Below are positions 54,422 through 58,780 of a stretch of 64,000 nt of DNA, piece after piece. The position numbers were made by a program, and so were the translations under genes. How positions within the stretch are numbered: the stretch's first letter is position 1; each line of letters starts with the position of its first letter. The notes beneath the pieces are model-generated. The model searched no databases and was not told the origin of the DNA. It saw nothing but the letters and a program-made list of their open reading frames with translations. The stretch is from IMG/VR virus record IMGVR_UViG_3300042275_000327, positions 83,627 to 147,626 of that record. The stretch is one strand, 5' to 3'. This stretch comes from a virus (Duplodnaviria > Caudoviricetes).

Positions 54422-55015
54422 ATGAAAAATTTTAGAACTGGAAGAGATGTTACTTTTAGAGAAGATTCAATGTGGAGGAGATTCAATCGGTATATTGAGA
54501 GCTTGTCTGTTGGAGACATTATTGATGTTGACATGATTCAGAACCATTTTTGGAAAGAGTACAATCAGGAAATTTCTAGAAAACAGATTATTCCATTAAT
54601 CAATAGGAGAAATAACATTTCTTGGACTTTTTCTGACTCCTATAATGGAACTTACTATATTCGTAGGCTAGACAAGATTCCTATGAAAATGTCTAATTGG
54701 GAAAAGTTTTTCAATTATGTTGAAGAAATGGAATATAATTCTTTACTTTCACTCTATCTTCTTGGAGAGGATTTGGATATTTCTAGGAAAACTTTAATTA
54801 AGTTTGTCTCTAGATATAATATAGATTTTGGGGGAAACCTGAAGTATGAACATGGTCGCTATAGGAAATTGTATCCTGAAGATGAATCAGAAACTATTAC
54901 TTTAGATGATGTTGAAGATGTGAAAGACTCTGATGTTCTTCCAAAGAACTTGTCTGTTACTTTTACTTTTGACTCAGTAGAAAAACTTCAAGAGTTTCTT
55001 TCAAAGTTGAATTAG
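54422..55015 (+). CDS. Hypothetical protein, possible tandem HTH
   Basis: Internally duplicated W..F..Y.E..ISRK pattern. Confidence 0.6.
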   Translation: MKNFRTGRDVTFREDSMWRRFNRYIESLSVGDIIDVDMIQNHFWKEYNQEISRKQIIPLINRRNNISWTFSDSYNGTYYIRRLDKIPMKMSNWEKFFNYVEEMEYNSLLSLYLLGEDLDISRKTLIKFVSRYNIDFGGNLKYEHGRYRKLYPEDESETITLDDVEDVKDSDVLPKNLSVTFTFDSVEKLQEFLSKLN

Positions 55016-55022
55016 TATTTTT

Positions 55023-55127
55023 GGGCTATTATTTGGTATCGATTGGTAGATTGATGAAGCGACGAAAGGCCAACCTGAACGAAAGCTGAGGTTTATCAAG
55101 ACCAGAGTTCGAATCTCTGATAGTCCA
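55023..55127 (+). ncRNA. Mini-tmRNA (tRNA-like domain only)
   Basis: Acceptor GGGCUAU/AUAGUCC with G3.U70 and A73; 13-nt stemless D-loop UAUUUGGUAUCGA; helix 2a UUGGUAGAU/GUUUAUCAA; GAC linker; T-arm CAGAG-UUCGAAU-CUCUG. Confidence 0.8.
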
Positions 55128-55128
55128 T

Positions 55129-55196
55129 GGAAAGCAGATTAGCAGAATGCCAAGCAATCTGTAGAGGAGCAAAGCTACTCGTATAGTCTGCTTTCC
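55129..55196 (+). ncRNA. Unknown three-way-junction RNA
   Basis: 13-bp closing stem GGAAAGCAGAUUA/UAGUCUGCUUUCC enclosing two hairpins. Confidence 0.55.
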
Positions 55197-55293: not shown

Positions 55294-55650
55294 ATGTATG
55301 AAACAGAATATTTTACTTTGTCATTAAGAAAAGATGGATGGCATATCAAGATTGAAAACAGAAATAGATATGCAAAAGAAATATTTGAACAGCTAGATGA
55401 AGCTGAGAACTGGGTAAAAAAGAATTATCCTGATAATTGGATTAGTCATGAAATAAAGAAGTCTATCGGTCATCTGATGACTTTTAAAAAGTGGAAAGAA
55501 GGTGTAAAAACCAAATGTTTCATTGATGATGATGGTTGGGGAGACCTTCTTGATGAGAATTACAATACTATAAGAGAGGGATATTCTCCTTCTGATTATA
55601 GAGGACTTAAACCAAGAAAAGCAAAATATATTTTATGGTATAACAGATGA
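55294..55650 (+). CDS. Hypothetical protein
   Basis: 118 aa with RBS. Confidence 0.65.
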   Translation: MYETEYFTLSLRKDGWHIKIENRNRYAKEIFEQLDEAENWVKKNYPDNWISHEIKKSIGHLMTFKKWKEGVKTKCFIDDDGWGDLLDENYNTIREGYSPSDYRGLKPRKAKYILWYNR

Positions 55651-56069
55651 TTAAGCAAGTTATTATAATGAGAAAAGATCTGAATATGCGGAAGGGAAAA
55701 ATGATTGCACAAGGTAGTCACTCTTCCATGAAGATCTTTTTTGACAGAATGAGACAGTCAGTGAGCTATCCTTTTTCTTCAATGGGGGATGATGTTACTG
55801 AAGTAGTCACCTATGAATTAGAAAATGTAACACCAGAAATGATTGAATGGATTGAAGGAGCTTTCACTAAAATTGTACTTGGCGTCAATTCACTAGAAGA
55901 ATTATTGGCAATAAAGGATAAAGCAGAGGAAGCTGAACTTCCAGTAGCATTGATTGAAGATAATGGATGGACTGAATTTGGAGGAATAAAGACTATTACT
56001 TGTATTGCTATTGGTCCAGATGATTCAGAAAAGATAGATAAGATTACAAAAGACTTGAAACTATTGTAA
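55647..56069 (+). CDS. pth2: Peptidyl-tRNA hydrolase type 2
   Basis: RKDLNMRKGKMIAQGSH, KIVL, DNGWTE, TCIAIGP, ITKDLKLL. Confidence 0.93.
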   Translation: MIKQVIIMRKDLNMRKGKMIAQGSHSSMKIFFDRMRQSVSYPFSSMGDDVTEVVTYELENVTPEMIEWIEGAFTKIVLGVNSLEELLAIKDKAEEAELPVALIEDNGWTEFGGIKTITCIAIGPDDSEKIDKITKDLKLL

Positions 56070-56074
56070 ATAGA

Positions 56075-56161
56075 GGAATGAACAACTGACAAGGAGTCAG
56101 GATGGTTTGCTAAACCAATCGATCAGTAATTCTGATTTGGGTTCGAAACCCAGTCATTCCG
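56075..56161 (+). tRNA. tRNA-Ser(GCU)
   Basis: GGAATGA/TCATTCC, G73, loop TTGCTAA, long variable arm; atypical D-arm. Confidence 0.85.
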
Positions 56162-58076: not shown

Positions 58077-58144
58077 CGCTGGAAGTCAAGGTGACGACAC
58101 GGTCTCATAAGCCGTGGATGGGGGCTCGATTCCCCCTCCAGCTA
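58077..58144 (+). tRNA. tRNA-Met(CAU), initiator-like, reduced D-arm
   Basis: C1xU72 mismatch, loop CTCATAA, 68 nt. Confidence 0.75.
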
Positions 58145-58575: not shown

Positions 58576-58637
58576 TTGTTACAAGCGCACCGTATCTTTT
58601 CGGAGAACGGCAGGAGTGGCCACCATAGAAGGGCTGT

Positions 58638-58713
58638 AGGACTGTGGCGGAATGGTATACGCTACCGTTAAGGTGGTACGATTAGGGTGCAGGTTCGAAT
58701 CCTGCCAGTCCTA
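58638..58713 (+). tRNA. tRNA-Leu-like with non-canonical anticodon loop
   Basis: Perfect acceptor/T arms, A73; TACC-GTTAAGGT-GGTA. Confidence 0.65.
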
Positions 58714-58780
58714 AATATTTTTGTTATGGTGATAGGATTGTCCCATGTAAAAAACAGAAAAATCCGGACAGAAGATTTAT

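Follow-up and report, generated by a model that had tools for sequence, protein, structure and literature searches.

The locus described here raises a key question: is a 105-nt stretch of phage DNA that looks like a tmRNA without its message a working RNA gene, and, if so, what would it do in the infected cell? Bacteria rescue ribosomes and tag proteins mainly by trans-translation, and a phage RNA reduced to the portion bound by AlaRS, EF-Tu and SmpB would be a ready-made natural competitor of this pathway. The DNA analyzed (the window, 64 kb in length) is the final part of a 147.6-kb IMG/VR virus record of an uncultured large phage, which is 86% complete. The gene, hereafter the mini-tmRNA, is a discrete RNA gene at 55023-55127 on the plus strand of the window and occurs once in the whole record. 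A BLAST search of the locus against known phages gave no match.

Structure and genomic position of the gene

The first-pass annotation had described a tRNA-like domain of tmRNA that lacks both pseudoknots and the usual tag region and is encoded by a gene that is not permuted. The order of the parts is confirmed by direct reading, and the description is borne out by structure, covariation and model tests. The parts that it named are all present (coordinates refer to the plus strand throughout). The acceptor stem comprises 7 bp (GGGCUAU/AUAGUCC), its 5' strand at 55023-55029 pairing with 55120-55126, and carries the alanine identity pair G3 (55025):U70 (55124), followed by A73 at 55127; both were read directly and from the 14-member alignment described below. 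The D region (55030-55042, UAUUUGGUAUCGA) is stemless: its 13 unpaired nucleotides contain GG and end in UCGA, the final GA corresponding to 19-GA-20 of E. coli tmRNA. Helix 2a, in which 55043-55051 pairs with 55091-55099, has 9 bp (UUGGUAGAU/GUUUAUCAA) including three G-U pairs, and the GAC linker that follows (55100-55102) places its GA opposite the GA at the end of the D region. The T-arm (55103-55119, CAGAG-UUCGAAU-CUCUG) consists of a 5-bp stem and the 7-nt loop UUCGAAU. Direct reading shows neither a D stem nor an anticodon arm. The strands of helix 2a are separated by an insert of only 39 nt (55052-55090), one more than the approximately 38 nt first given for this replacement region, which leaves no room for PK1-PK4 or helix 5. 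The single-sequence minimum free energy structure differs from this cloverleaf-like fold (z = -2.2); the fold is supported by covariation, not by energy.

The gene begins 7 nt after the stop codon of an ORF at 54422-55015, and a consensus scan revealed neither a promoter of its own, including just upstream, nor a simple terminator. Given this spacing and the lack of a consensus promoter just upstream, the mini-tmRNA is probably excised from a longer transcript, as are the tRNAs downstream. It heads a cluster of 11-12 tRNA genes located at 55.2-61.6 kb of the window (ARAGORN, Rfam), and, like the adjoining tRNA-Lys gene, it does not encode CCA.

Between the mini-tmRNA and tRNA-Lys lies a branched stem-loop (55129-55196, plus strand; -30.4 kcal/mol, z = -4.7) that is followed by UUUUU, the U run extending to 55201. 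This structure is absent beside every homologue of the mini-tmRNA and is therefore a separate element, perhaps a terminator or a processing spacer. A two-piece or extended gene taking in the three-way junction at 55129-55196 was excluded, as the flanks are unconserved at all homologous loci.

The cluster contains several non-standard tRNA-like genes. The tRNA that ARAGORN places at 58637-58714 has an undetermined anticodon of two bases, and at 58077-58144, there is a weak Rfam tRNA call of 30.6 bits. Just upstream of tRNA-Leu, an 87-nt tRNA-shaped element (56075-56161, plus strand) with a 7-bp acceptor stem and the T-loop UUCGAAA draws no call from ARAGORN or Rfam; the single-sequence model R1 (see below) aligns to it end to end with 16.6 bits.

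Homologues and covariation

To find relatives of the gene, a covariance model (R1) was built from the single window sequence with the fold proposed in the first-pass annotation. A search of whole records with R1 returned the first homologue (67 bits) in the closest related phage record, which had been reached via the phage gene for Pth2. Two conserved blocks of the insert, UGAAGCGACGA and ACGAAAGCUKAG, were then used as a search pattern and revealed three viral and 14 metagenome loci, all of full length. The resulting long-form family comprises 14 distinct sequences, i.e., the window gene and 13 more from phage and metagenome contigs. Neighboring genes were also followed as routes to homologues: the upstream ORF has no relatives, the downstream ORF led to one non-syntenic locus, and Pth2 led to four related phages, in none of which the RNA adjoins Pth2. 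A first pattern based on the D-loop and T-loop matched ordinary tRNA-Met alone and was discarded. The insert motif at L125:6300-6420 was rejected as a homologue, being a chance match inside the coding sequence of a HicA-like toxin in a Desulfobacterales MAG.

The search pattern constrained the insert only, leaving G3:U70, A73 and the covarying stems unconstrained, so that covariation and the conservation of the G-U pair could be assessed without bias. In the 14-member alignment, 95% of the cells assigned to pairs are indeed paired, compared with 70% after shuffling and 36-48% when the partners are slid against each other. Nineteen pairs are altered on both sides, and none of 500 shuffles reached the observed values. 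Among the 14 distinct sequences, compensatory changes were found in four of the seven acceptor pairs, in all nine pairs of helix 2a and in four of the five T-stem pairs, with 98% of the cells paired in helix 2a and 100% in the T stem. Each of the acceptor pairs 4-7 has changed on both sides, while G3:U70 is invariant: pair 3 is G-U and pair 2 is G-C in 14/14 members, and A73 is likewise present in every one of them. The flanking DNA is unrelated among the loci, and the conserved block starts and stops at the predicted mature ends; these coinciding boundaries within unrelated flanks identify the mini-tmRNA as a discrete gene. Thus, the mini-tmRNA is real and conserved, and it is under selection both for its fold and for G3:U70.

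Recognition by models and class membership

Another important question is whether this RNA belongs to a known class. Standard tools are silent: neither ARAGORN nor Rfam, at gathering thresholds and at E up to 10, calls a tmRNA, mt-tmRNA or tRNA on the gene. The Rfam tmRNA models, which the first-pass annotation had put forward as a check, thus gave no call, and this failure of Rfam and ARAGORN counts against the identification as a mini-tmRNA. When run over the whole record, RF00023 produced T-loop-sized matches elsewhere only, and RF02544 had no match on the gene.

A published phage example provides the point of comparison. Mycobacterium phage DS6A is listed on the tmRNA Website (tmID 11587) and named in passages of PMC4131195 and PMC11915505, both citing Mao et al. 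2009, as having a 'TLD only' or CDS-less tmRNA. The gene is located at JN698994 28478-28557, between gp33 and gp34, and is unannotated in the GenBank record. A covariance model of the long-form family (R2) finds it (L134:28478-28557) with 43.8 bits, while tRNA-Ala scores 25. In the reverse direction, we used a pattern independent of the insert (GGGG, 12 N, TCGA, gap, AC, T-loop, TCCA), which in IMG/VR (L136-L254) matched at least 120 viral loci with at least 92 distinct sequences, nearly all of 77-85 nt. A model built from 87 of these short phage forms alone (R3), and hence independent of the long-form family, gives 63.7 bits for DS6A, 36-56 bits for the members of the long-form family and 38.4 bits for the window gene, which as a whole (55023-55127, plus strand) is the top match in the window, the runner-up scoring 17.1. 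The margin of the window gene over ordinary tRNA-Ala, which scores 31 bits, is only approximately 7 bits (38 vs 31). The D region tells the two apart in the same direction: the long forms share 9-10 of 15 positions with one real tmRNA and 5-7 of 15 with tRNA-Ala (9/15 and 5/15, respectively, for the window gene). Together with structure and covariation, such reciprocal recognition by R2 and R3 makes it very probable that the window gene is a TLD-only mini-tmRNA of the class first described in DS6A. It consists of the tRNA-like domain and helix 2a, with a shortened, capped continuation of helix 2 replacing the pseudoknots and the tag message.

The tag-less mini-tmRNAs are therefore a large and mostly unannotated phage class, of a kind that is already known and is common in phages. 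The first-pass annotation had placed tag-less tmRNAs mainly in protist mitochondria; they also occur in phages and plastids, with at least 92 distinct short viral forms. The class extends far beyond the one phage example published so far and, since neither ARAGORN nor Rfam detects it, is absent from phage annotation. What is new here is a rare long subfamily (~105 nt) with a conserved extension of helix 2. When limited to long gaps, the same pattern returned only the long-form family and two further loci, against at least 120 loci of short forms. The first, L212:6550-6656 (minus strand), is a distant relative of the long-form family, 107 nt in length, with an R2 score of 72 bits; the second, L230:5162-5262 (plus strand), is a separate long form of 101 nt with another insert and the inner stem GAGU/ACUC.

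Structure of the insert

From helix 2a outward, the insert begins with a closing U.G (or C-G) pair, a bulge of 3-4 nt and GA opposite GA or UA; further out, it continues with the stem AGC/GCU, a loop of GA/AAA, the pairs CG/CG and an apical loop of 13-15 nt. The stem AGC/GCU is backed by a paired insertion, AGAC/GUCU, in L212. Among the 14 members, the apical loop combines an invariant GCC with a hypervariable 3' half; for example, L111 and L116 differ only at three adjacent loop positions. The invariance of UGAAGCGACGA and ACGAAAGCUKAG arises partly by construction, both blocks being required by the search pattern, but that of the GCC does not, since the pattern left its stretch free. The apical hairpin AGG/CCU of the single-sequence fold was rejected, being paired in 56% of the alignment.

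The first-pass annotation had suggested that the replacement region can form a kink-turn. The insert resembles a kink-turn of the Kt-7 type in its succession of canonical stem, bulge, GA facing GA and Watson-Crick stem (AGC/GCU); it differs in the length of the bulge, 3-4 nt, and in a second pair that is either A.G or A.U. All 14 members show this arrangement, but their GA is fixed by the search pattern, and L212 has A.A where a kink-turn needs G.A. In addition, no gene of the L7Ae family, whose members bind kink-turns, was found in the record, and real tmRNA has a closely similar purine-rich stretch directly past helix 2a. Taken together, these observations lead us to read the insert as a retained and capped helix 2a/2b region, which explains it at least equally well; its likeness to a kink-turn is a resemblance in sequence, and a true kink-turn is a possibility only. 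The conserved insert probably positions or stabilizes the RNA or binds a further factor.

Proposed competition with host tmRNA

These data lead to the question of function. The best explanation, to which as a whole we assign a probability of roughly 0.6, is that of a tag-less mini-tmRNA competing with host tmRNA. The tRNA-processing enzymes would cut the RNA from a transcript shared with the upstream ORF, a host enzyme would add CCA, and host AlaRS would charge it with alanine. The charged RNA would bind host SmpB and compete with host tmRNA both for this protein and for stalled ribosomes, and this competition would damp the degradation-tagging of proteins made during infection. Since no SmpB was found in the window record or in the four related records (five searched), any SmpB partner would have to be that of the host.

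Competition itself is the most likely function, with odds that we put at about even by analogy with known molecules. The notion of an SmpB decoy, already raised in the first-pass annotation, has a published precedent in DS6A and in an engineered TLD-like RNA: according to passages of PMC4131195 and PMC11915505, citing Mao et al. 2009, an engineered E. coli RNA of this type inhibits tmRNA, so that a phage RNA of similar shape may do the same. The inhibition published in these passages is, however, that of an engineered E. coli molecule. Moreover, the conserved 39-nt insert and the reading frame within it, which is closed in 14/14 members, are not obviously needed by a pure decoy. If the RNA acts as a decoy and nothing more, its description soundly annotates a kind already known but is no discovery.

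The closed frame in the insert

The closed frame deserves separate consideration. It is the tiny putative frame GCC AAC CUG AAC GAA AGC UGA (ANLNES*, 55069-55089, plus strand). Is it translated, so that the RNA would be a working minimal tmRNA? It would then accept alanine transfer, resume at the GCC of the apical loop, read 1-9 codons and end at an in-frame stop, thereby freeing the ribosome and leaving short tails only (A, AQ, ANLNES, AYITKA), i.e., a degron-free rescue. We regard this as unlikely, although several features point toward it. All 14 members meet a stop in the GCC frame (at codon 2, 3, 7 or 10), while the other two frames are closed in 7/14 and 5/14. Of the six sequences in which the conserved UGA/UAG falls outside this frame, five have an early stop at codon 2 or 3, including a UAA-to-UGA change; with random spacers, such early stops have p ~5e-4 if the related sequences are treated as independent. 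The GCC is invariant in a stretch left free by the pattern, and all members carry A at position -4, as is found upstream of resume codons. Furthermore, the resume codon of full tmRNA is close to the 2a/2b internal loop (PMC1168896), so that the position of the GCC is more plausible than the loop size would imply.

Against this, the members are related, and, counted by clade, the early stops amount to ~2-3 independent events. The agreement between spacer length and the G/U variant of UGA/UAG, considered as a proof of coding, was rejected because its match in five of eight clades is at chance level. The encoded peptides, of 1-9 residues and without ALAA-type ends, are not conserved; the same conserved nucleotides are read in two frames among the members (as NES and TKA). 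For a message that has to be threaded, a 39-nt closed loop beside a 9-bp helix is also very short, and a frame of this kind is missing from DS6A and from the short forms. In the distant relative L212, the GCC frame has no stop, so the frame that the first-pass annotation had reported for the window gene (ANLNES*, without an ALAA degron) is present there, and the GCC frame is closed throughout the family of 14 but open in L212. The alternative frames AGC GAC GAA... and GCG ACG... were rejected, being open in other members. As a sign of use, the closed GCC frame is weak but not nil, and it offers a concrete and cheap test of whether an RNA of ~100 nt can template termination. If the frame were used, this would be the smallest natural RNA carrying out complete trans-translation, with which the phage would keep ribosomes working and its own proteins untagged.

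Other explanations

A rescue without resumption has a similarly low probability. Here, the alanyl-RNA together with SmpB would take over the nascent chain, and the resulting peptidyl-RNA, with no message on which to resume, would drop off or be released and be hydrolyzed by a peptidyl-tRNA hydrolase such as the phage Pth2. A gene for this enzyme is indeed located at 55647-56069 (PF01981, E = 1.5e-30), 520 bp downstream of the mini-tmRNA, and Pth2 is present in three of the five records with the RNA; moreover, the CDS-less tmRNAs of organelles co-occur with SmpB and are thought to aid with incomplete mRNAs (PMC11915505). However, one 91%-complete record of 224 kb carries the RNA but no Pth2; in another carrier (G001), the two lie ~20 kb apart, and Pth2 is common in tRNA-rich phages regardless, while no release-factor-like gene (RF-1 domain) was found in the record. 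Its link to the mini-tmRNA is therefore loose.

Equally doubtful is a role independent of SmpB, in which a tRNA-shaped RNA would act as a decoy or sponge for tRNA-directed host defenses or enzymes, or as a protein-binding scaffold via its insert. The position of the RNA at the head of a tRNA cluster with several other odd tRNA-like elements, the conserved purine-rich internal loop of the insert and the RNA ligase ~2.5 kb downstream at two homologous loci are consistent with such a role, but the features that have been kept (the stemless D region ending in GA, the GA linker and G3:U70) are specific to tmRNA and go beyond generic tRNA shape. No neighboring protein is conserved across the loci, and neither an L7Ae-type binder nor an RNA ligase was found in the window record. 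The two ligase genes (L081:6121-7305 and L124:4958-6145) encode a PHA02142 OB domain and lie in otherwise different loci, which suggests an RNA-repair context in some carriers.

The silence of the standard detectors and the fact that phages integrating into ssrA carry its 3' end would also fit a remnant of ssrA (a decayed fragment, or an attP left by integration there), an aberrant tRNA-Ala or a chance look-alike. This reading is highly improbable and is refuted by the presence and covariation of both halves of the molecule. Homologues with compensatory changes, on which the first-pass annotation had made the matter depend, were found in phage and metagenome contigs as a discrete unit conserved within the unrelated flanks of many contigs. 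The RNA lacks both a D stem and an anticodon arm, and the only match in 185,579 species genomes was the chance one in the HicA-like coding sequence. The tag-less mini-tmRNA competing with host tmRNA thus remains our preferred reading.

Comparison with known tmRNAs

In bacterial tmRNA, 10-13 nt separate helices 1 and 2a, the non-Watson-Crick pairs 19-GA-20 / 333-GA-334 join the two sides, and a variable loop lies between helix sections 2a and 2b (PMC1168896). On a real tmRNA, the Rfam consensus begins its acceptor stem with GGGG and continues with a single strand of ~10 nt that contains GG and ends in UUC, followed by GA; on the 3' side, it has GA, C, the T-arm and an acceptor strand ending in CUCC-A. 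The long-form family agrees with this consensus in the GG..UUCGA D region, the GA/GA pairs and the C of the linker, all at the same positions, and in most long-form members, the linker is GAC or GGAC, as in real tmRNA. Thus, the window RNA shares with bacterial tmRNA (RF00023) the tRNA-like domain, pairs of the 19-GA-20 / 333-GA-334 type, helix 2a and a purine-rich loop past it, but it lacks the pseudoknots, helix 5 and a tag with a hydrophobic end and is one third of the length. With the CDS-less tmRNAs of mitochondria and plastids (RF02544; PMC11915505), it has in common that the tRNA-like domain is kept and the tag frame lost, whereas those RNAs are organellar, usually permuted and co-occur with a dedicated SmpB; the plastid forms measure ~65 bp (PMC11915505).

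The closest similarity is to the phage forms. The DS6A RNA is also phage-encoded and not permuted, with a 7-bp acceptor stem, G3:U70, A73, a 13-nt stemless D region ending in UCGA, helix 2a, a 3-nt linker and a T-arm, and it likewise has no pseudoknots and no tag. It differs in size and in the extension of helix 2: it is 80 nt long, its helix 2a has 6 bp and its cap 20 nt, compared with 105 nt and a 9-bp helix 2a in the window RNA, whose conserved 39-nt insert contains two short stems as well as an internal loop and, at its apex, a loop with the invariant GCC. The linker is CAC in DS6A and GAC in the window RNA, and the phages and hosts are others, the long forms coming from large, low-GC metagenome phages. 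The short phage mini-tmRNAs of IMG/VR (~77-85 nt) share the TLD architecture, the consensus at both ends and an A-rich stretch followed by CC past helix 2a, but their helix-2b stub of 3-4 bp is capped directly by a small loop. A comparison of the long and short forms can show which parts of tmRNA matter beyond the tRNA-like domain.
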